A stretch of 57,413 bases of DNA from an uncultured Planctomycetales bacterium (GTDB taxonomy: Bacteria; Omnitrophota; Gorgyraeia; Gygaellales; Profunditerraquicolaceae), in contig CAZSQC010000001.1 in NCBI GenBank assembly GCA_964608955.1, forward strand, positions 6,959 through 64,371. Reading direction: 5' to 3'. This document shows positions 31,096-54,690 of this stretch, in pieces. Made by a program: the position numbers and the translations under genes. Numbering within the stretch: position 1 is the first letter of the stretch; each line of letters starts with the position of its first letter. The notes beneath the pieces were generated by a model. That model did no database searches, was not told the DNA's origin, and worked only from the letters and a program-made list of their open reading frames with translations.

Positions 31096-31797
31096 TTACT
31101 TATTGAATCTGAAATTAACCAGGTCGCAATCCTGCATAATATAATTTTTTTGTTCCAGGCGCAGCTTTCCTGCCTGTTTAGCGCCGGTCTCCCCGCCGCA
31201 TTTTATAAAATCATCGAAGCTTATTATTTCCGCTCTTATAAAACCCTTTTGTATATCGGAATGAATGGCGCCCGAGGCCTCCCAGGCAGTCGCCCCGTTT
31301 CTTATAAGCCAGGCCCTGCTTTCTTTCTCGCCGGTTGTAAAAAAGCTTATAAAACCGCTTTTCTTAAATACATCGAAAATTAACTGCTCGGGAGAATTTA
31401 AATCCTCCTGTCCGGCGGTTATCACGGGTTTTAAGGTTATCAGACCATACCCCGAAATAATTTTCTTTTCCTCTTCGTTTAATGAAAGGCTGGAGATAAA
31501 CTCTTCCTTTTCAAGAACCTCTCTAAACCTGTTAAGAAGCGATTTTTCTTCCTCCGAAGAAGTTTTAGAAAGCCTGTTTTCGACAAAATCTAGATCCGCA
31601 AGAATAAGATCTGCGCGCGAATCAGGAGCAACCAGAACAACATCCGCATCAAGAAACTTATCTGCTCCGATTAAATCCGCCTGGATATAGACTTTTTTCT
31701 TGGATTTAGTGATTTTGTCAACCTGATCCAGCCTTTCGTCTTTAATGTTGCACTTACCCAAAGAAATACCGGGCATCGAAAATAATGCGATTTTCAT
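31096..31797 (-). CDS. YchF-related protein with degenerate, shortened G domain (DUF933/TGS C-terminal part retained)
   Basis: 233 aa. C-terminal FFTTGEKESRAW...AIHSDIQKGFIRAEIISFDDF...GKLRLEQKNYIMQDCDLVNFRFN matches YchF closely. The N-terminus reads FSMPGISLGKCN where YchF has GLPNVGKST, and about 130 aa of G domain are absent. Confidence 0.75.
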   Translation of the reverse strand: MKIALFSMPGISLGKCNIKDERLDQVDKITKSKKKVYIQADLIGADKFLDADVVLVAPDSRADLILADLDFVENRLSKTSSEEEKSLLNRFREVLEKEEFISSLSLNEEEKKIISGYGLITLKPVITAGQEDLNSPEQLIFDVFKKSGFISFFTTGEKESRAWLIRNGATAWEASGAIHSDIQKGFIRAEIISFDDFIKCGGETGAKQAGKLRLEQKNYIMQDCDLVNFRFNK

Positions 31798-31800
31798 AAA

Positions 31801-33753
31801 TTATTCTTCCTGTTTTTTTGTAGATTGGTAATGCGCGATTATTGGCGAGGATACCTTGTGCGGCACCTCTTCGTAATGCGAAAAATGCATGGTATAAACA
31901 CCCCTGCCGCCGGTAATCGACTTTAAATCGTTAGCATACTTGAACATTTCAGAGAGAGGCACCTGAGCCTTAACTATCTGTTGCTTCCCCTTAATTTCCA
32001 TCCCCATAATCCTTCCCCTTCTGGAGTTGATGTCCCCGGAGATAGCTCCGAGGAATTCTTCGGGGATCGCTACTTCTACATCCATAATCGGTTCTAACAA
32101 CACCGGCCCGGCATCCATAACGGCTTTTCTTAAAGCCATTGCGCCGGCAATTTGAAAGGCCATATCAGAAGAGTCAACTTCATGATATGAACCGTCTACC
32201 AAAGTTACCTTGATATCTTCTATAGGATAACCTGCCACCGCTCCCTCTAAAGCCGCCTGCCTGACGCCTTTTTCAACCGAAGGTATATAATTGCGCGGTA
32301 TGGCCCCTCCGAAAATCTTGTCTACAAATTCAAGCCCCTTACCTCTGGGCAAAGGAGAAACCTCAATCCAACAATCTCCGTATTGGCCGCGGCCTCCTGA
32401 TTGCCTCTTAAATTTACCCTGAACTTTTATACTCTTTGTTATTGTCTCCTTGTAAGAAACCTTAGGAGTCCCGAGCTCTACAGATACATTAAAACGTTTC
32501 TTTAACCTCCCGACCATTACCGAAAGATGCAAATCTCCTAAGCCGGATATAATAAGCTCCTTTGTTTGCGGGTCGTGGGTTACCTTAAAAGTAGAGTCTT
32601 CCGCAGCGAGCTTATGCAAGGCATCCGAAATCTTTTCTTCATCCTCCCTGGACTTAGGCTTTACTGAAGCGGATATTGCCGCCTCGGGGAAAATTAACGG
32701 ATCAAATAAGAACTGTTCTTTCTCTCCGGAAACCGAATCGGAAACCTGTGTATCTTTTAATTTGGCTAAAGCGATAATATCCCCGCAGCCGGCGGTATCG
32801 ATATTCCTCTGTTCTTTGCCCTGCAGAATATGTATCTGGCCTATTCTTTCTTTTACTTTTTTATTCACATTGTAAAAATTTGTATTCGAAGCAAGCGAGC
32901 CTGAAAAGACCCTTAAAAGGCTTAACTGCCCGACATAAGGATCCGAAATATTCTTAAATACAAAAGCCGAAAAAGGCGCATCCTCCTTTAACGCGACATC
33001 TTTTTTCTCCTGCGAGTTAAGAGGGTTAACGGCTGAGACTGCGGGCCTTTGTGTCGGATCAGGCAAATACTGTATAATATCCTCCAAAAGGTCTTTTACC
33101 CCCTTATCATTTAAAGCAGAGCCTACGATTACCGGAAAGAGTTTGCGCTTTAAAACCGCCTGGGCAAGCCCGCCCTTAATTTCATCGACAGAAAGCCTTA
33201 AAACCGCCAGGTATTTTTCCAGCAAGCTGTCGTCACTCTCGGCGATTGCCTCCATCAAAAGAGGATCCTCCAATGATTCGATAATAATGCAATTCTTGGA
33301 AAGTCCGGATTTTAAGTCTGCCAGGACGCCGTTAACATCAATCCCTTCTTTATCGGACTTATTAATAAATATCATACACGGCAGATTAGCCTCTTGCGTC
33401 ATCTCCCATGCTTTTTCAGTCCCTACCTGCACGCCGCTTGCAGCATCAACTACTATAATGGCGCTGTCAACTGCGCGTATCCCGCAGGTAACTTCCCCGG
33501 AAAAATCTGTATAACCCGGTGTATCTATAATTTGCATCCTGTTACCTTGATATTCACAGTAAAGAAGACTTAAGTTTATAGAGTTCTTTTTCTCTATTTC
33601 GTCAAAACTATAATCGCTTACGGTAGTACCGTCTTCTATTTTTCCTTTGCGGTTGGTGGCTTTGCAGTAATAAAGCAGACTTTCAGCAAGGGTAGTCTTT
33701 CCTGACTGGGCATGCCCTAAAAGGATAAAATTACGCTTGGATTTAGGATCCAT
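31801..33753 (-). CDS. EF-G family translational GTPase paralog
   Basis: 650 aa. Motifs G1 GHAQSGKTT, G3 DTPGYTDF and G4 NKSD, with domains II-V recognisable. It diverges from the second EF-G in the window and is shorter than canonical EF-G. Confidence 0.85.
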   Translation of the reverse strand: MDPKSKRNFILLGHAQSGKTTLAESLLYYCKATNRKGKIEDGTTVSDYSFDEIEKKNSINLSLLYCEYQGNRMQIIDTPGYTDFSGEVTCGIRAVDSAIIVVDAASGVQVGTEKAWEMTQEANLPCMIFINKSDKEGIDVNGVLADLKSGLSKNCIIIESLEDPLLMEAIAESDDSLLEKYLAVLRLSVDEIKGGLAQAVLKRKLFPVIVGSALNDKGVKDLLEDIIQYLPDPTQRPAVSAVNPLNSQEKKDVALKEDAPFSAFVFKNISDPYVGQLSLLRVFSGSLASNTNFYNVNKKVKERIGQIHILQGKEQRNIDTAGCGDIIALAKLKDTQVSDSVSGEKEQFLFDPLIFPEAAISASVKPKSREDEEKISDALHKLAAEDSTFKVTHDPQTKELIISGLGDLHLSVMVGRLKKRFNVSVELGTPKVSYKETITKSIKVQGKFKRQSGGRGQYGDCWIEVSPLPRGKGLEFVDKIFGGAIPRNYIPSVEKGVRQAALEGAVAGYPIEDIKVTLVDGSYHEVDSSDMAFQIAGAMALRKAVMDAGPVLLEPIMDVEVAIPEEFLGAISGDINSRRGRIMGMEIKGKQQIVKAQVPLSEMFKYANDLKSITGGRGVYTMHFSHYEEVPHKVSSPIIAHYQSTKKQEE

Positions 33754-33771
33754 AAAAATGAGTTCCTAAAA

Positions 33772-34959
33772 TTATTCCAGGTAAGTATAAATCTTGCCTT
33801 TGTAATTACGCAGGACATATTTTCCTTTGGCCTGCGATAATATATAATTGGGTCCTACGGGAATTTTTCCTCCCCCACCCGGTCCGTCTATAACATAGGT
33901 AGGCACTGCGTAACCCGAAGTGTGCCCGCGCAGTTTCTCCATTATATTTATTCCCGCTGCAACAGGAGTCCTGAAATGTTGCGTACCTCTAACCGGGTCA
34001 CACTGGTATATGTAATAAGGCCTTACTCTTATCTGCAGCAACTCATGGACGAGCTTTTTCATTATGTAGGGACGGTCATTAATCCCTTTAAGCAGCACTG
34101 TCTGGGACCCTAACGGAACACCCGCCTCGGAGAGCATATCACAGGCTATTTTACAGCGCTTTGTAATCTCTTTCGGGTGATTAAAATGTATACTCATCCA
34201 TATCGGAGCATATTTTTTAAAGATGTTTACAAGCTTATCCGTGATGCGCTGCGGAAGTGTCACCGGAATTCTGGTGCCTAACCTTAAAAGCTCCACATGC
34301 GATATTGAACGGATCTTCTGAATTAAATCCTCTAATGCTTCATCTTCCAGAGTTAATGGATCGCCTCCGGAGATAAGCACATCGCGTATTTTACGGTTAC
34401 TCTTTATGTATTCTATTGCTGCATCAAACCTGCCGGAAGCGCCGGATTCTTTCTCTTGATGATCGCCTACCAGCCTGCGGCGGGTGCAATGCCTGCAGTA
34501 CATTGCGCAATGGTCGGTAGAAAGCAAAAGTACCCTATCCGGATAACGATGGACTAAATTCGGAGCGGGAGAATCTCTGTCTTCGGCGCAAGGATCAGTC
34601 ATTTCATGGGGAGAAACTATAAATTCCTGCGCTACCGGAACAGCCTGCCTACGGATAGGACAATTCGGATCCTCCGGGTCAAGCAATGTCCCCCAGTAAG
34701 GGGTTATTGCCATAGATAACCTCCCTTTTGCCTTATCTATGCCCTTCTCCTCTTCCGGTGTCAATTGAATAACCTGGCTTAAAGCCTCTTTCGTGCAAAT
34801 CCTATTTTTTATCTGCCAATGCCAATCTTCCCAGTCAAGCGGATTAACATCTTTATAAATCGAGATCTGCTGGTAATCCCGTAATTTACGTACCGGCTTA
34901 GAAAGAATTACGGCATCGGATTGAGTTTTCTGGGTCTCGGATAATTGTATATTGCTCAA
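33772..34959 (-). CDS. kamA: KamA family radical SAM aminomutase (lysine 2,3-aminomutase-like)
   Basis: 395 aa with CAMYCRHCTRRR cluster motif and typical W.WQ..NRI N-terminal region. Confidence 0.9.
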   Translation of the reverse strand: MSNIQLSETQKTQSDAVILSKPVRKLRDYQQISIYKDVNPLDWEDWHWQIKNRICTKEALSQVIQLTPEEEKGIDKAKGRLSMAITPYWGTLLDPEDPNCPIRRQAVPVAQEFIVSPHEMTDPCAEDRDSPAPNLVHRYPDRVLLLSTDHCAMYCRHCTRRRLVGDHQEKESGASGRFDAAIEYIKSNRKIRDVLISGGDPLTLEDEALEDLIQKIRSISHVELLRLGTRIPVTLPQRITDKLVNIFKKYAPIWMSIHFNHPKEITKRCKIACDMLSEAGVPLGSQTVLLKGINDRPYIMKKLVHELLQIRVRPYYIYQCDPVRGTQHFRTPVAAGINIMEKLRGHTSGYAVPTYVIDGPGGGGKIPVGPNYILSQAKGKYVLRNYKGKIYTYLE

Positions 34960-35957
34960 TTTAGTCTTTTCCTTTCTGAGGCGCTTAAAAGTATAGCCTC
35001 AATGAGATCTTCGTATTTCATCCCTGCGGCATAAGCCATAATAGGAAAATTTGACTCTTTGGGATCAAGCCCCGGCAAAGGGTTTATCTCCAAAACATAA
35101 GGCACATTATCTTTATCAAGCCTTATATCAGTCCTGGATATATCCAGGCAGCCGACTGCGCGGTGCGTTTTAAGCGCGGCTTCCTTTACTAGATTCTCCG
35201 TTTCTCTATCTAGCCTGGCAGGACAGTAAAATTTCGGCGTAAGGCCAAGGTTCTTGTCCCCCTGAAATTCTTTCATCCTCCAGGAATAAAAATATTCTCC
35301 GCTACTATTACACTCTGAAAAATCTATCTCTAAAATAGGCAGAATCTGGGTCTTGCCATTCTCCAGGATTCCTACGGTAAGCTCTTTACCTTCAATAAAC
35401 TCCTCTACTAAAGCTTCCTGACGGTAAATATTGATCGTATCTCTGACCCTGCTTAAAAGATCCTCTTTGTTGTTCACCACATTCGCCTTATTTATCCCCT
35501 TTGCAGAGCCTTCGCAATTAGGCTTTACAATCAAAGGGAAGCGCAATGAAGAATCCAATTCATCGGTGACTCTGGAAAAAACCTGAAAGTTCGGAGTAGG
35601 GATATTTTCGGCTTTTAATATCTTCTTGGTTAGGGCCTTGTTTAAAGCAAGGGCGAGGGAAAAAGTACCGGATCCTGTATAGGGTATATTTAAATAATCT
35701 AGTATGGCTGGAACTTCTGACTCGCGGAACTTTCCGTGTTTTCCTTCCGCGATATTAAAAACCATGTCAACGTTGTTTTTTGAAAAATAAGAAAAAAGTT
35801 TAGGGTATTCTACATCTATTGTTTCAACTTTATGCCCTTTGCTTTCTAAGGCTAAGACAATCGAATTTATAGTCTCTTCGGAATCGCATTCTGAGAAATA
35901 ATCTGCCGGCTTTGATTCATCCTTCTTCTTTAAATTATAAGTCAGGGCGACTTTCAT
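34956..35957 (-). CDS. D-alanine--D-alanine ligase family ATP-grasp enzyme (paralog B)
   Basis: 333 aa. PLIVKPNCEGSAKGI, EEFIEGKELTVGIL and VLEINPLPGL are ATP-grasp motifs. A 4-nt overlap couples it to kamA. Confidence 0.85.
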   Translation of the reverse strand: MKVALTYNLKKKDESKPADYFSECDSEETINSIVLALESKGHKVETIDVEYPKLFSYFSKNNVDMVFNIAEGKHGKFRESEVPAILDYLNIPYTGSGTFSLALALNKALTKKILKAENIPTPNFQVFSRVTDELDSSLRFPLIVKPNCEGSAKGINKANVVNNKEDLLSRVRDTINIYRQEALVEEFIEGKELTVGILENGKTQILPILEIDFSECNSSGEYFYSWRMKEFQGDKNLGLTPKFYCPARLDRETENLVKEAALKTHRAVGCLDISRTDIRLDKDNVPYVLEINPLPGLDPKESNFPIMAYAAGMKYEDLIEAILLSASERKRLN

Positions 35958-36947
35958 TTAATTTAAATTATTTCTCTCTAAAGCATAATTTAAGATTCTG
36001 CCGATTATTTTTTCGTACGTGATACCGATATTCTCCGCAACAAGCTTAAAGACATCTTCCGTGGACAAAGAAGGAAGAGGATTGATCTCCAGCACATAAG
36101 GCCTGCCTTCCTGGTCCACGCGGAAATCCACCCTGCCGAAATCACGGCACTCAACCGCGTGATAGGTCTTGAGCGCAAGATCCTCGAGGCTCTTCTTTAA
36201 ATCCTGCGGTATTTTTGCCGGACAAATATATTCAAGCCTGTCCGAAGTAATCCTCGCAAAAGTATAAAATTTATCGTTTAGTTTTAGCTTTCCGTCGATC
36301 TTTATCTGGACTATAGGCAGTATTTCAGGGCTCTCATTGCCTATGATAGCCACCGTAAACTCCTGGCCGGATATAAACTCTTCCACCAAAGCTGGCTGCT
36401 TGTATGTATCTATGATGTAACCGACCTGCTGGGTTAAGTCTTCTTTTGAAGTAACGCGCGAACTTTCGCTTAAGCCTTTGGAAGAGCCTTCAAAGCGAGG
36501 CTTTACAATAAGAGGAAAATTAAAATGGTTTGCATTAACCAGCTGATCTTTGGTGTGAACTTCAAAAAATTTAGGAGTGGGTATTTTGTCGGCTATAAAG
36601 ATCTTCTTTGCCATGACTTTATCCAGAGTAATGCCGAGTGTCAGAGCATCCGCGCCCACAAAAGGGATACCTGCCATCTCCAAAATAACGGGAACCTGGG
36701 ATTCCCTGTTTCTGCCGAACATCCCCTCCGATATATTAAAAACTATATCAACCTTAAGCGAACCTAATCTTTCTAGAAGGTTACCGGCATTCCCGATTTT
36801 TTCAACCTTAAAACCGTTAGATTCGATTGCTTTCGCAATAACATCGATGGTAGAAGGATGGTCAAATTCCGCATTAGCATCTAACGGATCGCCGTCTTTA
36901 AACTTGTAATCGGTCTTTAAATCGTATGTTAAGCCTACCGTTTTCAT
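35958..36947 (-). CDS. D-alanine--D-alanine ligase family ATP-grasp enzyme (paralog A)
   Basis: 329 aa and collinear with paralog B (PLIVKPRFEGSSKGL, EEFISGQEFTVAII, VLEINPLPSL). It abuts paralog B with no gap. Confidence 0.85.
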   Translation of the reverse strand: MKTVGLTYDLKTDYKFKDGDPLDANAEFDHPSTIDVIAKAIESNGFKVEKIGNAGNLLERLGSLKVDIVFNISEGMFGRNRESQVPVILEMAGIPFVGADALTLGITLDKVMAKKIFIADKIPTPKFFEVHTKDQLVNANHFNFPLIVKPRFEGSSKGLSESSRVTSKEDLTQQVGYIIDTYKQPALVEEFISGQEFTVAIIGNESPEILPIVQIKIDGKLKLNDKFYTFARITSDRLEYICPAKIPQDLKKSLEDLALKTYHAVECRDFGRVDFRVDQEGRPYVLEINPLPSLSTEDVFKLVAENIGITYEKIIGRILNYALERNNLN

Positions 36948-48078: not shown

Positions 48079-50112
48079 TTAATAATCCTCCTGGTCCCTA
48101 AAATACTCTTTCATAACCCGAAGAAATTCTTCATCGCTTTTGCCGCTACGGTTGTAATTTTTAAAGTTTTCTTCTGCCAATTCGTATTCATTTGTGATAT
48201 TTTCAACCCTAATCAAATTATCAAGGATATCCGGAGCGTCGATAAAACGTGACGCCTGCGTAAATACAGAGCCCCCCATATCCATAAAGGCTCTGGCAGA
48301 TCTGTCAATGTGCGGCTTTAAAAGGAACAGATTCTCTTTTGCGCGTGTAGAAGCGACATAAAAAAGCCGGCGCTCTTCTTCCAGCGATTCTTCGTCTTCA
48401 AGGGAAAGGTAGGAAGGTAAATGTCCCTCTGCGACATAAATCATAAATACCGTGTGCCACTCAAGCCCCTTGGCAGAATGAATGGTAGAAAGCGTAAGAG
48501 AAGAATCATCTCTGTCTTTAAGGCCGCTTTCAACTATGCCCCTTTCAGGAGGCTCTAAGGCCATATCTGTAAGGAAGCCCTCCAGCGACGCATACCTGGA
48601 AGCAATGCGCAGAAGAGACTCGATATCATTCAGTCTCCTATGATAATCATCGTATTTATTCTTAAGTAGCGGCTGATAATATTTAACAAACTTTTCTATA
48701 GCTTCTTCTGGCCTTAGGTCCGCTTTGTCGAATTTTGCCAGAATCCCAAACAGCTCCCTGACTTCCTCGTTCTTTAGGAGCTTACTGTCTTTATCCTTTT
48801 GGCTGTTTAAGTTTTCAATTATTCTTTGAGCGCTCTTAGGACCTATACCTGGAATAAGCAAAAGCGCACGAAGCCAACTTACCTGGTCATGAAAATTGTG
48901 TATAATGCGCAGGTAAGAAATAATATCTTTGATGTGCGCGGCTTCTACAAACTTCTGGCCTCCGTATTTGACAAACGGGATGTTGCGGCTGGAAAGCTCC
49001 ACCTCTAAATCATTGGAATGCCACCCGGAACGGAATAAAACAGCCATATCTTTTAGTTCCAGTCCTTCTTCTCTTAACTCAAGTATCTTTTCGGCAATAT
49101 ACCTGGATTGTGCATTTTCGTTTCTAAGATCAACGAATACCGGGAGCTTGTTTCCTTTTTTTCTGGTGAAAAGGTTTTTTTCAAAACCTTCTTTTGCCTG
49201 ACTGATTACCTTATTTGTAAGGTTTAGTATGGGCTGGGTGGTACGGTAATTTTCTTCAAGCGTAATTACTGCCGCATCTTTGAATATACGGGGAAAGTCC
49301 ATTATATTCCTGAAATCCGCCCCCCTGAACGAATATATACTCTGGGCATCGTCGCCGACCACCATAATATTCTTGTGTACGCTGGCGAGCAAACACGCGA
49401 TATGAGCCTGTAGTTTATTGGTATCCTGGTATTCATCCACCATAATATATTTGTACTTACCCGCCAACAGGCTAAGAATATCTTCATCGCTGCTTAATAA
49501 ATTTTTTAAGTACACTAGGAGATCGTCATAATCTACCAGGGATTTACCGCATTTATATTTCTGGTATTCTTCACGGATTCTTCTTATGTCAGAGCTAAAT
49601 TCCATGAATTGGGGATACTCTTCATAAAGGACATCTTCAAGCTTCTTGGATTTATTAACGCTTTTTGATATTACCTCCAGTATTGCCTTTTTTCTGGGAA
49701 ACCTTTTTTCCGTCTTGTTAAACCCTAACTGGGTACGTATCAGATTAACGGTATCCTGCGCATCAGACTCATCTAGAATGGTAAAGTTCGCAGATAGGCC
49801 GAGCCTTTTCGCATATCTCCTTAAGATACTATTGGCAAACGAATGGAAAGTCCCCCCTGAAACCCTTGAACACCGGTTATCAAGTAACAAAGAAGCCCTT
49901 CTTAACATCTCTTCTGCAGCTCTCCTGGTAAAAGTAAGAAGAAGTATCTCTCCCGGGTCAACCCCTTTTTCTACTAGATAAGCAACCCGATGCACTAAGA
50001 CACGCGTCTTACCGCTACCTGCGCCGGCAATAACAAGATACGCTCCAGAAATAGATTCTACTGCTTTTAGCTGAGCCAAATTAAGCTCTTTTTTATAATC
50101 TATCTTTGCCAT
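48079..50112 (-). CDS. UvrD/PcrA/Rep family ATP-dependent DNA helicase
   Basis: 677 aa. Walker A AGAGSGKT, DEYQDT, and further SF1 helicase motifs. Confidence 0.9.
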   Translation of the reverse strand: MAKIDYKKELNLAQLKAVESISGAYLVIAGAGSGKTRVLVHRVAYLVEKGVDPGEILLLTFTRRAAEEMLRRASLLLDNRCSRVSGGTFHSFANSILRRYAKRLGLSANFTILDESDAQDTVNLIRTQLGFNKTEKRFPRKKAILEVISKSVNKSKKLEDVLYEEYPQFMEFSSDIRRIREEYQKYKCGKSLVDYDDLLVYLKNLLSSDEDILSLLAGKYKYIMVDEYQDTNKLQAHIACLLASVHKNIMVVGDDAQSIYSFRGADFRNIMDFPRIFKDAAVITLEENYRTTQPILNLTNKVISQAKEGFEKNLFTRKKGNKLPVFVDLRNENAQSRYIAEKILELREEGLELKDMAVLFRSGWHSNDLEVELSSRNIPFVKYGGQKFVEAAHIKDIISYLRIIHNFHDQVSWLRALLLIPGIGPKSAQRIIENLNSQKDKDSKLLKNEEVRELFGILAKFDKADLRPEEAIEKFVKYYQPLLKNKYDDYHRRLNDIESLLRIASRYASLEGFLTDMALEPPERGIVESGLKDRDDSSLTLSTIHSAKGLEWHTVFMIYVAEGHLPSYLSLEDEESLEEERRLFYVASTRAKENLFLLKPHIDRSARAFMDMGGSVFTQASRFIDAPDILDNLIRVENITNEYELAEENFKNYNRSGKSDEEFLRVMKEYFRDQEDY

Positions 50113-50115
50113 AAA

Positions 50116-53100
50116 TTATTCTTTTTCTTTCTGGCTTTGTTTTTCTTCGATAAGCTTCTGGGTTATTTCCTGGGGGACCTGAAGGTACTTAGAGAATTCC
50201 ATGGTGGCATTTGCGCGGCCCGAAGATAAAGAACGAAAGGCTGTGGCATAACCGAACATCTCCGACAAAGGAACTTCTGCGGAGATTATCTTCTGTTTTC
50301 CCTTAGCATCCATATTAAGTATTTTACCCCTGCGAGAGCATATATACCCTACACACGCATTTACGTGCTCTTCCGGCGTAGCTACCTCCAAAGACATATA
50401 AGGCTCCAGGAGAATAGGCTTAGCTTTCATAAAAGCATCTTTGAATCCGAAAATACCGGCCATCTTAAAAGCTATTTCCGAAGAATCGACTTCGTGAAAA
50501 GAACCGTCGTAAAGTTCGACTTTTAAGTCCACCACCGGATACCCCACAAAAACACCTTTTTGCATTGCGTCAATAACCCCTTTCTCAACCGCGGGGATAA
50601 ATGAACGTGGAATCGCCCCTCCTTTTATGGAATCAATAAATTCAAAACCCTTTCCTGCTTCAGAGGGAATTAATTTCATTAAGGCATGCCCGTATTGCCC
50701 CCTTCCCCCGGACTGCTTGATATATTTACCCTCTCCCTGTGCTTCCTGGGTTATGGTTTCACGGTAAGCTACCTTGGGCTTACCTACTATTGCTTCTACC
50801 CCGAACTCCTCCTTCAACCTGTCTACTATAATCTCCAAATGCAATTCCCCCATTCCGGTCAAGACAACTTCTTTGGTTTCTTCGTCGGTATGTACAAGAA
50901 AAGTAGGGTCTTCCTCGGTCAACTTTGCTAACCCCTTGCCGAGCTTCTCCTGGTCTGAACGGCTTTTAGGCGCGATACTCAATGAAACAACAGGCGTAGG
51001 AAACTGAATCGCTTCCAATAAAACCGGAGACTTAGGATCGCAAAGAGTATCTCCAGTTATTGTATTGCTTAATCCTACTACCGCTACAATATCTCCCGCA
51101 AATGCGCAATCAATGTTCTCGCGCTGGTTAGCATGCATTTGCACGATGCGGGCCACTCTCTCTTTTTTATTCTTAGTAGAATTCAAAACATAGGTGCCTG
51201 TCTGAAGGCACCCGGAATAGACCCTGACATATACGAGTTTTCCCATGTGCAAGTCTGCCTGCACCTTAAAGGCTAACCCCGAAAAAGCTTCATCGGAATC
51301 TGCCTTGCGTAAAATAATATTTTCTTTATCCTCGATATCATGCCCTTCGACTGCCGGTAAATCCAAAGGAGAAGGCAAAAACATAGTAATGGCGTCCAGC
51401 AGCTTTTGGATGCCTTTGTTCTTAAATGCAGAACCGCACATAACCGGAACAGCCTTATTTGCCACCGTTCCTTTTCTAAGCGCCGAAATAATTTCCTGGG
51501 CAGAGATAGCGCCTTCCCCTTGTTCCAGATACCTCTTCATCATCTCCTCATCAAAAGCAGCAGACTTTTCTAACATAATATGCCGGAATTCTTTTGCTTT
51601 CTCCAGATAATCTTGCGGTATCTCTTCGATGCGGAATTCTTTACCCTGGGACTCTTCTTCATACAAATAGGCTTTCATCTCTATCAGGTCAATTACCCCT
51701 TTAAAGTTTTCTTCGCTCCCCAGCGGTATTTCTATCGGAACAGGGTTTCCTCCCAGGTCATCACTAATGCCTTTTAACACCGCGAAGAAATCCGCTCCGG
51801 TACGGTCCATTTTATTTACAAACCCGATTTTAGGAACATTATATTTATTAGACTGGTGCCAGACTGTCTCAGACTGCGGCTCAATACCTCCTACTGCGCA
51901 AAAAACAGCTACTGCCCCGTCAAGAACCCGCAAAGACCTTTCAACTTCAACGGTAAAATCAACGTGGCCCGGGGTATCAATAATATTAATACGATGGTCT
52001 TTCCAAAAACAGGTGGTGGCTGCAGCCGTAATAGTAATACCTCTTTCCTGCTCCTGTTTCATCCAGTCCATAGTCGCCGCTCCCTCATGCACTTCTCCTA
52101 GTTTATGGGAACGCCCGGTGTAAAATAATATTCTTTCGGTAGTAGTGGTCTTACCCGCGTCTATATGTGCCATGATTCCGATATTGCGCGTCTTATCAAG
52201 CTCGTATTTAGGCTTTGGATGCCCCTCTTGAGCCGTAATCTCTACACCAGTATCTTCTTCTACAGCCTCTTTTTCCTCCTGTAATAAGGTCTCCTTTTCC
52301 TCCCCGGGCTCTTGATCTTCAAGCTCTTTTTCTACAGGGCCTTCTTCAAGAGGCGCGGTTTTTTCTACCGGCTGCGCTTTAATCTCCTCTATATTAACCA
52401 CAGTAGAAGCTAAATCTACCCCGGGCTTATTACTCTCTTGCGACTTAACCCCTGCTTCTAATTCCTTCTTTAATCTTGAAATTTCAAGAACAAGTTCCTG
52501 ATATTGGGAGTCCTTTACTTCCAGCTCCTTTTCGAGTTCCGTATATTCTTCGTTCAATCTGTTAAACTCTGCCTTAGGAACCCACTCGCTTATTTTTTCT
52601 TTATTCTTAAGCTCTTCGATTGTTTTAAGGTATAACTTAATATCCTGTTCGTTTTTCTCAATCCGGTGCCTCTGTATCTCAATCTGCTCTCCCTGTTCTT
52701 TTATCTTATTATTAAGCTCCCCTATCTTAATATTAAGCTCCCTGCTTTCTTTCTGTAAGTTAACATTTTTAGTGAATTCTTCCTGGGATTCTTTTTCCTT
52801 TTCAAGAAACCTGTTCTTAAATTCCAGGCTTTCGGCTTTGGCTTTGTTTAACATCTCCTCCGAAGCTGCTACCCAATTCTGCCTGCGCAATAACTCCTGT
52901 TTTACCTCTTCATACTTACCTACTGCCTCCTGAAACTTCATCCTCTCTGACTCATCAACATTCTTTTGTTTTTCGAGCTCTTCTTCAAGCAGCTTAAGTT
53001 GGGATTCAAGTTTTATTATTTTTTGTTCGCGGAAATCGGAGAATGAATCAAGGGTAAGTGTCTGATTCTTTTTTTTACGTTTATTTTGGGTTTGGCTTGA

Positions 53101-53181
53101 ATTCGGAGAAAACACGATGAAAAGTGCGTAGAGAATGAGCCCTGCCGCAGGAATAAGTATTATAAAACCGAGATTGTCCAT
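50116..53181 (-). CDS. fusA: elongation factor G with roughly 325 aa N-terminal TM helix + coiled-coil + acidic linker extension
   Basis: Single 1021 aa ORF. Residues about 326-1021 are a complete EF-G ([36 protein letters not shown]). Residues 5-24 are hydrophobic ([20 protein letters not shown]). Residues about 50-250 are heptad-like and E/K/L/Q-rich. No in-frame ATG/GTG/TTG is seen near the junction (about 52209). Confidence 0.8.
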
Positions 53182-53184
53182 AAA

Positions 53185-54489
53185 TTAAACAGCTTTGCCC
53201 CGCAACTTCTCCATGCGCTCTTTAATCTTAGCCTCAAAACCCAAACCGGCAGGCTCATAATAACGCACTTTTTTGCGGGTATATTTCTGCTTTACATAAT
53301 GCCCTTCGTAGTCATGGGCGTATTTATATTCTTTGCCGTGCCCCAGCCTTTCTCCGTCCACTGAAGAATCCTTTAAATGGTCGGGGACTTCCTGAACTTT
53401 ATTATTCTCTATATCTTTCATTGCTTTGTCAATAGCAAGATAACTGGCATTTGATTTGGGCGCACAGGATACATAAATTACCGCCTGCGCCAAAGGTATG
53501 CGGGCCTCCGGCATGCCTACAAATTCGCAAACACCCAAAGCGGAGTTTGCCAAAACCAAAGCTAACGGGTCTGCGTTTCCGACATCCTCTGCCGCTAATA
53601 TACAGACCCTGCGCGCGATAAACCTTATATCTTCTCCCGCATAAAGCATTTTAGCCATCCAGTAAAGTGCGGCATCCGGATCGCTTCCGCGCATAGATTT
53701 TATAAAAGCTGAAGCACTGTCATAATGGCCGTCTTCATCTTTATCATATACCACCGGCTTCTTCTGAATAGAATCTGCGGCAACCTCCAGGCTAAAGTTA
53801 ATAACATCGCCCTTTGTTTTAGGGGTAGTTAGAATTCCCACTTCAAGAGCGTTAAGCGCCCTCCTGGCATCCCCTTCGCATACCCGGGATAAAAACTCCA
53901 GAGCCTTCTTATCTGTTTTTATCTTCATTTCCTTTAGGATAACGTCATTTTCTACGGCGCGGTTTAGTATAGTTATAATTTCTTCCTGCTTTAAGGGTTT
54001 TAATTCGCAGACTAGAGAGCGCGACAGAAGGGGAGAAACTAAAGAAAAAAACGGATTATGCACCGTTGCTCCGATTAGGATTGGATTTCCATCTTCTATA
54101 TCCGGAAGAAGGACATCCTGCTGAGACTTGTTAAAACGGTGGATTTCATCAATGAACAAAACGCTTTTGTTATTTGAAGTTGCCTTCCTCTGCTTAGCAA
54201 TACCGATCATCTTGCGTAATTCATCGACGCTGGAAGAGGTGGCATTTATCTGCATAAAATAAGACTTGGTTTTACTTGCGATGCATTGCGCCAGTGATGT
54301 CTTTCCTATACCGGGAGGGCCAAATAATATAAGAGAGCTTAAGCGGTCTGCCTCAACAGACCGTCTTAACAGTTTACCCTTACCCAAAATATGCGCCTGG
54401 CCGACAAAAGAATCCAGATCCTTAGGGCGCATCCTTACCGAAAGAGGCAAACTGTTTGAATCCGTCTTGTTTTCTTCAAAAAAATCCAT
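53185..54489 (-). CDS. rarA: replication-associated recombination protein A (RarA/MgsA AAA ATPase)
   Basis: 434 aa. GPPGIGKTS, FIDEIHRFNK and C-terminal MgsA domain motifs. Confidence 0.95.
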   Translation of the reverse strand: MDFFEENKTDSNSLPLSVRMRPKDLDSFVGQAHILGKGKLLRRSVEADRLSSLILFGPPGIGKTSLAQCIASKTKSYFMQINATSSSVDELRKMIGIAKQRKATSNNKSVLFIDEIHRFNKSQQDVLLPDIEDGNPILIGATVHNPFFSLVSPLLSRSLVCELKPLKQEEIITILNRAVENDVILKEMKIKTDKKALEFLSRVCEGDARRALNALEVGILTTPKTKGDVINFSLEVAADSIQKKPVVYDKDEDGHYDSASAFIKSMRGSDPDAALYWMAKMLYAGEDIRFIARRVCILAAEDVGNADPLALVLANSALGVCEFVGMPEARIPLAQAVIYVSCAPKSNASYLAIDKAMKDIENNKVQEVPDHLKDSSVDGERLGHGKEYKYAHDYEGHYVKQKYTRKKVRYYEPAGLGFEAKIKERMEKLRGKAV

Positions 54490-54506: not shown

Positions 54507-54690
54507 AAAAAAAATCCCCGCTCTTGTGCCGTTGGACTGAATAGCTTGAACCAGATTGGTTAAGGTGGGTGCCCTCTCTTTAAGAGCCAAAACTCTTAAA
54601 AGAATATAGGCTCCCTTGATATTTTTGTTGGTTCAAAAATTATCAAAATTCCAACGCGCACAGCAGGGATTTAAAAGAACAATTATTTCT
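54507..54690 (-). ncRNA. candidate roughly 184 nt structured sRNA, long imperfect rod (6S RNA-like architecture)
   Basis: Own promoter just upstream. Closing helix AAAUCCCUGCU-GUGC-GUUGGA (54675-54651) pairs with UCCAAC-GCAC-AGCGGGGAUUU (54536-54512), giving 21 bp with small bulges. Inner 8-bp helix UUGAACCA/UGGUUCAA, terminal hairpin UUUAAGAG/CUCUUAAA, and a U8 tract at the 3' end. Confidence 0.45.

Follow-up and report, generated by a model that had tools for sequence, protein, structure and literature searches.

An elongation factor G with a predicted membrane anchor, conserved in many Omnitrophota

Elongation factor G (EF-G) is universal, abundant and freely diffusing, and an integral-membrane version kept across many species of a phylum would be unexpected. 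Whether such a version exists is the question raised by a locus in the stretch of DNA analysed here (the window), which comprises 57,413 nucleotides of contig CAZSQC010000001.1 (assembly GCA_964608955.1), deposited as an uncultured Planctomycetales bacterium and placed in the Omnitrophota by its GTDB lineage. A single open reading frame (ORF) with an ATG start, located at 50116..53181 on the minus strand, codes for 1021 amino acids plus stop and is predicted to be a membrane-anchored EF-G, designated F-type. A preliminary description, made from the letters of the window, had read this ORF as a hydrophobic N-terminal helix with a basic patch, a heptad-like segment of roughly 200 residues, an acidic, proline-containing linker and a complete EF-G. 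Each of these elements was recovered where that description had placed it, and the gene is laid out as follows.

50116..53181, minus strand: whole fused gene (F-type), 1021 amino acids plus stop, a single ORF with homologous protein clusters and unbroken orthologous loci
53104..53172, minus strand: predicted transmembrane helix, residues 4-26, from hydropathy, charge counts and an AlphaFold2 helix at residues 2-24
53035..53103, minus strand: basic, disordered juxtamembrane segment, residues 27-49, with a predicted local distance difference test (pLDDT) below 50 for residues 25-49 and a Lys/Arg excess
52591..53034, minus strand: coiled-coil helix 1, residues 50-197, from a continuous AlphaFold2 helix and heptad periodicity
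52576..52590, minus strand: helix break with the signature S-E-W-V-P, residues 198-202, from the AlphaFold2 break and conservation
52453..52575, minus strand: coiled-coil helix 2, residues 203-243, from an AlphaFold2 helix and 3.5-residue periodicity
52219..52452, minus strand: disordered acidic, Pro-rich linker, residues 244-321, with pLDDT below 50 for residues 243-319 and low conservation
50116..52218, minus strand: complete EF-G, residues 322-1021, G domain with G' and domains II-V, from TIGR00484 and five Pfam domains

The first 60 residues of 105 homologues were scanned for hydropathy and charge. The 19-residue Kyte-Doolittle maximum was 2.76 in the window protein, the family median being 2.46, and the uncharged stretch had a median length of 25 residues (residues 4-26 in the window protein). 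No second hydrophobic segment was detected. Ahead of the helix lie 2 residues (median) with 0.02 Lys/Arg on average, and the 20 residues behind it carry 5.3 Lys/Arg on average, an excess that is kept throughout the family and includes the patch NKRKKKN (residues 32-38) of the window protein. According to the positive-inside rule, the N-terminus is predicted to lie outside and the C-terminus inside. Within the helix, Y18 is nearly invariant.

The structure was modelled as a monomer by AlphaFold2 with the 105-sequence alignment. The model places helices at residues 2-24, 50-197 and 203-243, disorder at 25-49 and 243-319, a break at 198-202 and a confidently predicted EF-G at the end. Helix 1 has a pLDDT of approximately 80-88. 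Over all of its 148 residues the alignment shows a hydrophobic periodicity of 3.50 residues that stays in phase. Relative to its mean, the spectral power is 16-fold at 3.5 and 0.3-fold at 3.6, which is indicative of a true left-handed coiled coil. Both helices together form a heptad region of 194 residues (residues 50-243).

Two conserved blocks, RRQ-WV..SEEML.K.K.E...K.F..KE and EQIE.Q.H.IEK, are found in helix 1, and at the break no variation was seen at E199, W200 or V201, with P202 conserved to at least 90 %. Invariance was counted in 28 sequences that are only approximately 42 % identical pairwise, and 12 residues were invariant among them (W103, H172, E199, W200, V201, K203, F206, L209, E212, E217, E233 and L237). 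The mean majority frequency was 0.73 for residues 96-145 and 0.77 for residues 193-240, compared to 0.84 for the EF-G part and 0.28 for the linker. Judged from these blocks and invariant residues, the N-terminal part (hereafter N-module) is more than a featureless spacer. The linker is composed family-wide of 24 % Glu, 13 % Lys and 11 % Pro, and the distance between the SEW motif and the RNIG motif varies from 102 to 167 residues across the family. P322 and P324, just ahead of the EF-G core, are nearly invariant; apart from this P.P pair, no conserved cleavage motif was visible in the alignment of the linker.

The EF-G core starts at K325/Y326 (DNA position 52209). The NCBIfam equivalog model for EF-G, TIGR00484, matched residues 326-1015 over model positions 5-690 of 691 with 1050.9 bits (cutoff 659.4), and the five Pfam domains GTP_EFTU (330-604), EF-G_D2 (633-715), EFG_III (727-801), EFG_IV (802-921) and EFG_C (924-1009) were found in their order. 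The match to Thermus thermophilus EF-G, aligned to its residues 4-689 of 691, scored 882 bits. The G1 motif AHIDAGKTT and the G3 motif DTPGH, which contains the catalytic His, were present in 120/120 family members and the G4 motif NKMD in 119/120. The catalytic motifs are invariant in the 105-sequence alignment as well, and both tip loops of domain IV, (Q)[ST]GGRGQYGH and DGS[FY]H.VDSS, are intact, being kept like the catalytic motifs in 119-120 of the 120 members. The models for EF-G2 and EF-G-like proteins stayed below their cutoffs (NF009377, 514.9 vs 890; NF058620, 498.1 vs 1000; NF009892, 192.4 vs 640), as did the model for tetracycline ribosomal protection proteins (NF012153, 387.3 vs 775). 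All sequence criteria tested thus place the C-terminal 700 residues in the EF-G family. From the conservation of the motifs and the T. thermophilus match, ribosome-dependent hydrolysis of guanosine triphosphate (GTP) and translocation are the predicted activities.

To find relatives, the whole protein was searched against approximately 5.8 billion proteins, which yielded at least 120 clusters. Among the clusters listed, more than 110 are 985-1048 amino acids long and show 97-100 % query cover and 61-79 % identity; the named ones among the matches listed are all 'elongation factor G' of Candidatus Omnitrophica/Omnitrophota. A scan of GTDB by query-specific exact 8-mers, by which divergent copies could be missed, gave at least 80 loci. 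A total of 34 complete fused loci was parsed, namely the window, one further locus (L004) and 32 from the GTDB scan; they come from independent genomes and assemblies, obtained by differing technologies from differing samples and including a single-cell genome (L078). In 34/34 the frame is open from the hydrophobic N-terminus through to the EF-G stop, and the N-terminal extensions are 313-413 residues long. The preliminary description had named a stop or frameshift in the raw reads, or two separate genes at orthologous loci, as the findings that would overturn it; in the orthologous loci parsed, none of these occurred. The gene is also unbroken, coding for 1055 amino acids, in the closed chromosome of 1.82 Mb CP070807.1 (L082), which was read separately since its G1 motif, AHIDSGKTT, lies outside the motif search used for the 34 loci. 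Another closed genome, contig_50884 of ERZ25039512 (1.19 Mb), has the fused gene as well.

The long start is an ATG in 32 of the 34 loci. In the window it lies directly next to the upstream gene, and in the locus of GCA_028718225.1 (L001) it overlaps that gene. At the junction the DNA of the window reads cat cca aag cct aaa tac gag ctt gat aag acg cgc aat atc gga atc atg. The earlier remark that no start codon near the junction would give a separate EF-G was borne out: no in-frame ATG, GTG or TTG is present in the 60 codons ahead of the core, the nearest being a GTG at codon 261 upstream and the ATG of M337, within the first strand of the G domain. Elsewhere, an ATG lies within 40 codons of the core in only 3/34 loci, and all three start codons are missing from the 60 codons ahead of it in 16/34. 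Only one candidate internal start among the 34 loci has a Shine-Dalgarno-like motif. Internal starts near the core are therefore sporadic, and none is conserved that would give a free EF-G. An internal translation start as a conserved feature of this family was rejected on the basis of this survey.

Internal Met codons of this sort have nonetheless been chosen in public annotation. In GCA_028718225.1 (L001, 9077-12145), NCBI calls an EF-G of 714 amino acids and leaves 920 nt as 'intergenic'. Similarly, the fused gene is truncated at an internal Met in the NCBI entries P0028, P0030, P0064, P0084 and P0108. The chosen Met lies in the linker (712-714 amino acids) or within the coiled coil (891-925 amino acids), the latter in P0028, P0030 and P0084, and such calls leave as much as 920 nt of coding sequence without annotation. 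The truncation to a plain EF-G of approximately 714 amino acids probably explains why the extension went unnoticed. Some EF-G loci of the Omnitrophota type were found in bins labelled Planctomycetales, Planctomycetia or Methanosarcinales archaeon (L084 and L095 of JAIWAR01; L051, L063, L074, L080 and others), labels that point to mis-binning or mislabelling. The Methanosarcinales label might also reflect an Omnitrophota epibiont physically associated with a methanogen host.

The origin of the N-module was investigated with a profile of residues 1-245, which was searched against 1.84 billion cluster representatives and gave 337 proteins at E <= 1e-3. They fall into three groups, namely fragments of fused genes, fused forms that are more divergent and whose acidic linkers are longer (P0167, P0194 and P0201), and free-standing proteins. 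The free-standing proteins (alignment A3), which form an unnamed transmembrane coiled-coil family together with the N-module (alignments A2 and A3), are 214-236 amino acids long; in them a transmembrane helix and a KRKK patch are combined with a coiled coil, and the motif E-T-A-W-V-A-K-A-E-Y lies at the C-terminal end. Exactly two residues are invariant among its 29 aligned members (A3), W101 and W198, and they correspond to W103 and W200 of the fused protein. When the fused N-module was compared to A3 with hhalign, a single collinear stretch of 223 columns (residues 1-225) was aligned with a probability of 99.9 % and E = 3.7e-31. The N-module shares with the free-standing proteins the transmembrane helix followed by a cluster of Lys/Arg, the collinear profile match, the two invariant Trp and the motif E-W-V-x-K-x-E-[FY]. 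This homology indicates that the Omnitrophota gene is a fusion of a pre-existing membrane protein with EF-G. No Pfam or NCBIfam family was found for the N-module: the whole protein (E <= 0.01) gave nothing before residue 330, and residues 1-245 (E <= 1) gave two chance-level matches. The free-standing proteins belong to no Pfam family either. Likewise, a profile search of the PDB gave no relative of the N-module, only generic coiled coils at chance level (all E > 0.05).

The genes of the free-standing homologues (L045-L050; P0213-P0270) lie among signalling and TPR genes, not translation genes, in the conserved, operon-like order hybrid sensor kinase, Hpt, TPR protein(s), coiled-coil gene, aminotransferase. 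Two other proteins (P0218 and P0246), each of approximately 720 amino acids, combine MshEN and PilZ domains at the C-terminus with a transmembrane helix and an extremely long coiled coil. Their match to the N-module profile covers its first ~185 positions (E ~1e-14 to 1e-18). They may be relatives of the N-module fused to a cyclic di-GMP receptor, or the match may reflect only coiled-coil similarity.

Given the single conserved ORF, its architecture, the intact motifs and the origin by fusion, we consider with moderate confidence that the gene codes for a functional translocase tethered to the membrane, an EF-G leashed at the cytoplasmic face. Its topology, oligomeric state, reach, activity on the ribosome and biological purpose are what we infer from these data. 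The protein would be a bitopic protein of the inner membrane, the 23-residue helix spanning the membrane with 2-3 residues outside and the Lys/Arg cluster inside. The remainder would be cytoplasmic, as a heptad stalk of ~190 residues, a flexible acidic and proline-rich tether of ~80 residues and the complete EF-G. For the stalk, a parallel dimer or trimer is the most likely form, and its length would be approximately 28 nm, as calculated for 148 + 41 helical residues at ~0.15 nm each. The 78-residue linker would add ~5-8 nm on average and up to ~28 nm when stretched, and the juxtamembrane segment a few nm more, so that the tethered EF-G might reach ~30-40 nm typically, and ~65 nm at most, below the membrane.

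In this position the factor would still bind the factor site of the ribosome and hydrolyse GTP, and it would drive both translocation and, together with RRF, the recycling of ribosomes. An N-terminal appendage need not block binding to the ribosome, since the PDB contains engineered L9-EF-G N-terminal chimeras (4WPO, 4WQF, 5HAU and others), found here by EF-G sequence match, which were reportedly solved bound to ribosomes. Tethering would probably confine EF-G to a ribosome-rich shell at the cell cortex and concentrate it among cortical and membrane-docked ribosomes, away from the cell centre, without abolishing general translation. The Omnitrophota are ultra-small bacteria whose cells are mostly ~0.2 µm in diameter (PMC10066038), and the shell within reach of the leash would therefore be the larger part of the cytoplasm. 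The invariant and partly aromatic residues of the stalk (W103, H172, SEWVPK.EF) suggest an additional binding partner. That the anchored factor is connected with the very long and probably secreted proteins of the Omnitrophota is speculation. The preliminary description had proposed that such a protein could localise a ribosome subpopulation or act in rescue or recycling at the membrane. Its structural reading agreed with the data on every point tested, and these functional ideas stand as suggestions.

Several points weigh against a tethered working translocase. Accumulation of the full-length protein, its insertion into the membrane and its action on the ribosome are predictions, and cleavage might occur within the poorly conserved linker. 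The oligomeric state and geometry proposed for the stalk derive from a monomer model and from periodicity. Two bins (JAHJCI01 and JAIWAR01), one of them clearly mixed, hold both a fused and an unfused EF-G of the TIGR00484 class. Finally, several complete Omnitrophota chromosomes carry S12-S7-EF-G-EF-Tu-S10-L3 in the canonical order (preprint 10.64898/2026.06.07.730766), so that the tethered protein may be an extra copy.

The last two points would be accounted for by an accessory paralogue, that is, if an ordinary soluble fusA, beside rpsL/rpsG or elsewhere, performed bulk elongation and the tethered EF-G had a special task at the membrane, such as serving ribosomes docked at translocons during the synthesis of very long secreted proteins, or the recycling and rescue of membrane-bound ribosomes. 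The giant proteins encoded by Omnitrophota would fit such a task, and a division of labour between EF-G paralogues is known from other bacteria. The unfused EF-Gs of the phylum bear on this explanation. In a neighbour-joining tree of the EF-G parts, the fused proteins form a clade whose sister group consists of unfused EF-Gs of ~698 amino acids from Omnitrophota and Auribacterota, the Betaproteobacterial EF-Gs lying outside. This unfused type (U-type, for instance L094:5244-7340) is abundant too, is 63-71 % identical over the EF-G part, scores 1068.7 bits with TIGR00484, and lacks the N-module, with only 16 residues ahead of its G1 motif; in L094 the neighbouring genes are molybdenum cofactor (Moco) genes. 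The boundary between the two types is not clean, as the EF-G part of one fused protein (P0333) is 77 % identical to an unfused one, and the fusion may have been gained or lost more than once.

Among the loci listed by the GTDB scan there were 19 unfused copies, 17 of them in genomes without a detected fused copy; of the ~37 genomes bearing a fused copy, 2, the bins mentioned above, showed an unfused one. JAIWAR01, labelled Methanosarcinales, is the mixed bin. This distribution fits orthologous replacement better than universal paralogues, although it is not proof. Motifs of S12, S7 or EF-Tu were found near none of the 24 fused loci scanned, and S12, S7 or tuf motifs adjoined none of the 19 unfused copies scanned. 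Moreover, the fused protein keeps every catalytic motif and its TIGR00484 score is as high as that of the unfused type. We therefore regard an accessory role beside a soluble EF-G as unlikely.

IMG/VR was searched for an S7-linked fusA from genomes with the fused gene, and all EF-Gs obtained were unrelated ones; the locus with the best match among those inspected (L006) is 54 % identical, belongs to an ordinary S12-S7-EF-G operon and looks unrelated to Omnitrophota. No contig was common to the match lists of the fused, unfused and 650-amino-acid (see below) types among the longest contigs of the matches listed. A designed DNA pattern detected 106 metagenome loci (L134-L239) in which rpsG (S7 ending HYRW-stop) is directly followed by tuf with no fusA between. 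Most of them have 59-70 % GC and smaller groups 43-56 % GC, and none was assignable to Omnitrophota. Str operons without fusA are thus not rare.

Beyond the preliminary description, the analysis revealed, besides the free-standing homologues of the N-module and the orthologue-like unfused EF-Gs of other Omnitrophota, one more EF-G-family gene, the only other one found in the window.

31801..33753, minus strand: second EF-G-family gene (E2-type), 650 amino acids, with five EF-G Pfam domains, not part of the fusion

This paralogue passes the cutoff of NF009891 (631.6 vs 597) and just misses that of TIGR00484 (654.1 vs 659.4). It has GHAQSGKTT at G1 and DTPGY at G3, where Tyr replaces the catalytic His. 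The same replacement was seen in 98/120 relatives, DTPGH occurring in 0/120, and this paralogue is unlikely to be the working translocase. The type is found at 75-89 % identity in at least 120 clusters, the named ones being Omnitrophota proteins annotated simply as 'elongation factor G'. The loop of domain IV ends in GD instead of GH. The gene sits in a conserved string (window 31096-36947, minus strand) that has the same order in L131-L133. Upstream are two ATP-grasp genes resembling D-Ala-D-Ala ligases and a radical SAM gene resembling KamA-type lysine-2,3-aminomutases (TIGR03820, 519.8, just under the cutoff of 525.4). Downstream are a gene whose 233-amino-acid product matches YchF in the C-terminal domain alone (model positions 265-367) and then purH. 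This string may be an unrecognised module related to translation factors.

Because the 650-amino-acid paralogue lacks the catalytic His and the fused fusA lies outside a str operon, it is conceivable, and we put it forward tentatively as somewhat doubtful, that the fused protein is the only catalytically competent EF-G in the lineages that carry it. In that case each round of translocation and of ribosome recycling would require a factor fixed in the membrane, and all active ribosomes would work within ~30-60 nm of the membrane. Such an arrangement would be feasible only in cells ~0.2 µm wide and may be tied to giant secreted proteins.

Alternatively, the membrane form might be a precursor or one of two isoforms, that is, a storage or regulatory state from which free EF-G is released by proteolysis of the linker or made from an internal start, as in the isoforms of IF2. 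The long, disordered and poorly conserved linker is typical of a protease-accessible region, P322 and P324 ahead of the core are nearly constant, and some species have an in-frame ATG in the linker that NCBI annotation takes as the start. However, internal starts are not conserved across the 34 loci and there is none in the window, the P.P pair is the only conserved element that could mark a cleavage site, and a pro-sequence would not need 12 invariant residues and a constrained stalk of 190 residues. This explanation appears improbable. The weakest alternative, a membrane coiled-coil gene and a fusA merged by an assembly indel or by ORF calling, could draw on the existence of free-standing N-module homologues and of unfused EF-Gs in the same phylum and on the absence of the window's own fused protein from the public gene collection, but it was rejected and is effectively refuted by the continuous frame of all the parsed loci and of more than 110 protein clusters, by the lack of a start codon for a separate EF-G in the window and by a linker frame that is kept despite large variation in length, a systematic homopolymer error shared at one site across assemblies being implausible with such diverse linker sequences.

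The genes on either side of the fused gene in the window are the following.

53185..54489, minus strand: rarA/mgsA-like AAA+ gene, upstream, its stop codon 3 nt before the ATG of the EF-G gene
48079..50112, minus strand: UvrD-family helicase gene, downstream, beginning 3 nt past the EF-G stop, in the same tight gene string

Like the fused protein, the products of these two genes were not found in the public gene collection. The preliminary description had placed the gene between rarA and a UvrD-family gene and outside the str context, and this is what was found. The order rpsL-rpsG-fusA-tuf, a typical though not strictly defining context of EF-G genes, is absent. No gene for S12, S7 or EF-Tu was present among the window ORFs that were Pfam-scanned or recognised by translation, some nine ORFs of at least 150 amino acids being left unscanned. 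The rarA/mgsA-like gene and the EF-G gene are probably co-transcribed and translationally coupled; in L001, the stop of the former and the start of the latter overlap as ATGA. A rarA motif was found just upstream in 11/24 fused loci scanned, and in several relatives a UvrD-family gene lies downstream of the fused gene, sometimes with inserted genes between. One such insertion is a gene for a 1663-amino-acid Metallophos-domain protein between the EF-G and uvrD genes of L001 (12282-17273), and two small genes, one of them coding for a Gly-zipper protein, are inserted between rarA and the EF-G gene in L004 (9080-9987). In the window, a 6S RNA (Rfam RF00013, 77.9 bits) was detected at 54511-54672 on the minus strand, between pheT and the rarA-like gene and thus immediately upstream of the rarA, EF-G and uvrD string.

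The preliminary description had not recognised such a protein as described, and the literature agrees with this. Open-access full text was searched for a membrane-anchored EF-G, for an EF-G with an N-terminal extension, transmembrane helix or coiled coil, and for EF-G in Omnitrophota, and no description was found; the supplements of two Omnitrophota papers contained nothing on EF-G. As far as the open-access literature shows, an integral-membrane EF-G, a universal soluble factor turned into a predicted bitopic membrane protein and kept across many Omnitrophota species, is therefore undescribed. It raises the testable question whether elongation is spatially organised by anchoring a core factor, and whether such organisation scales with cell size. 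The range over which ribosomes can be served by a tethered factor is open to study here as a natural experiment. The protein also adds a new conserved membrane coiled-coil module with free-standing relatives, and it exposes a systematic annotation error, as the NCBI start calls reduce the protein to an ordinary EF-G and hide the feature in many entries.

Compared to canonical EF-G (FusA; T. thermophilus, PDB 1DAR/4V5F), residues 322-1021 of the fused protein share all five domains, the G1, G3 and G4 motifs, the His of DTPGH and the loops of domain IV. The fused protein differs in its 321 extra N-terminal residues and in the position of its gene after rarA rather than rpsG, and canonical EF-G is soluble. 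The unfused EF-G of Omnitrophota and Auribacterota belongs to the same TIGR00484 class and to the sister clade, and is likewise not located beside S12, S7 or tuf, but it lacks the N-module. Conversely, the free-standing coiled-coil proteins (for instance P0220 and P0236) share the transmembrane helix, the basic patch, the heptads, both Trp and the E-W-V-x-K-x-E-[FY] motif, and end shortly past this motif with neither linker nor EF-G. The engineered L9-EF-G chimeras share an N-terminal fusion, but they are artificial constructs for crystallography without a membrane anchor.

Among membrane-bound proteins of RNA metabolism, RNase Y has an N-terminal transmembrane helix, a coiled coil and a cytoplasmic enzyme of the RNA machinery, and its activity is confined to the membrane. 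The likeness is one of design logic only, by analogy and with no relationship in sequence; the two proteins have different catalytic parts, and a long disordered tether is missing from RNase Y. RNase_Y_N (PF12072) was not matched in the Pfam searches of the whole protein (E <= 0.01) or of residues 1-245 (E <= 1). Other translation-related GTPases, such as EF4/LepA, which is stored at the membrane, and FtsY, bind the membrane reversibly via amphipathic or lipid-binding segments. In contrast, the fused protein has a predicted integral transmembrane anchor, and the factor that it would hold at the membrane is the core translocase itself.

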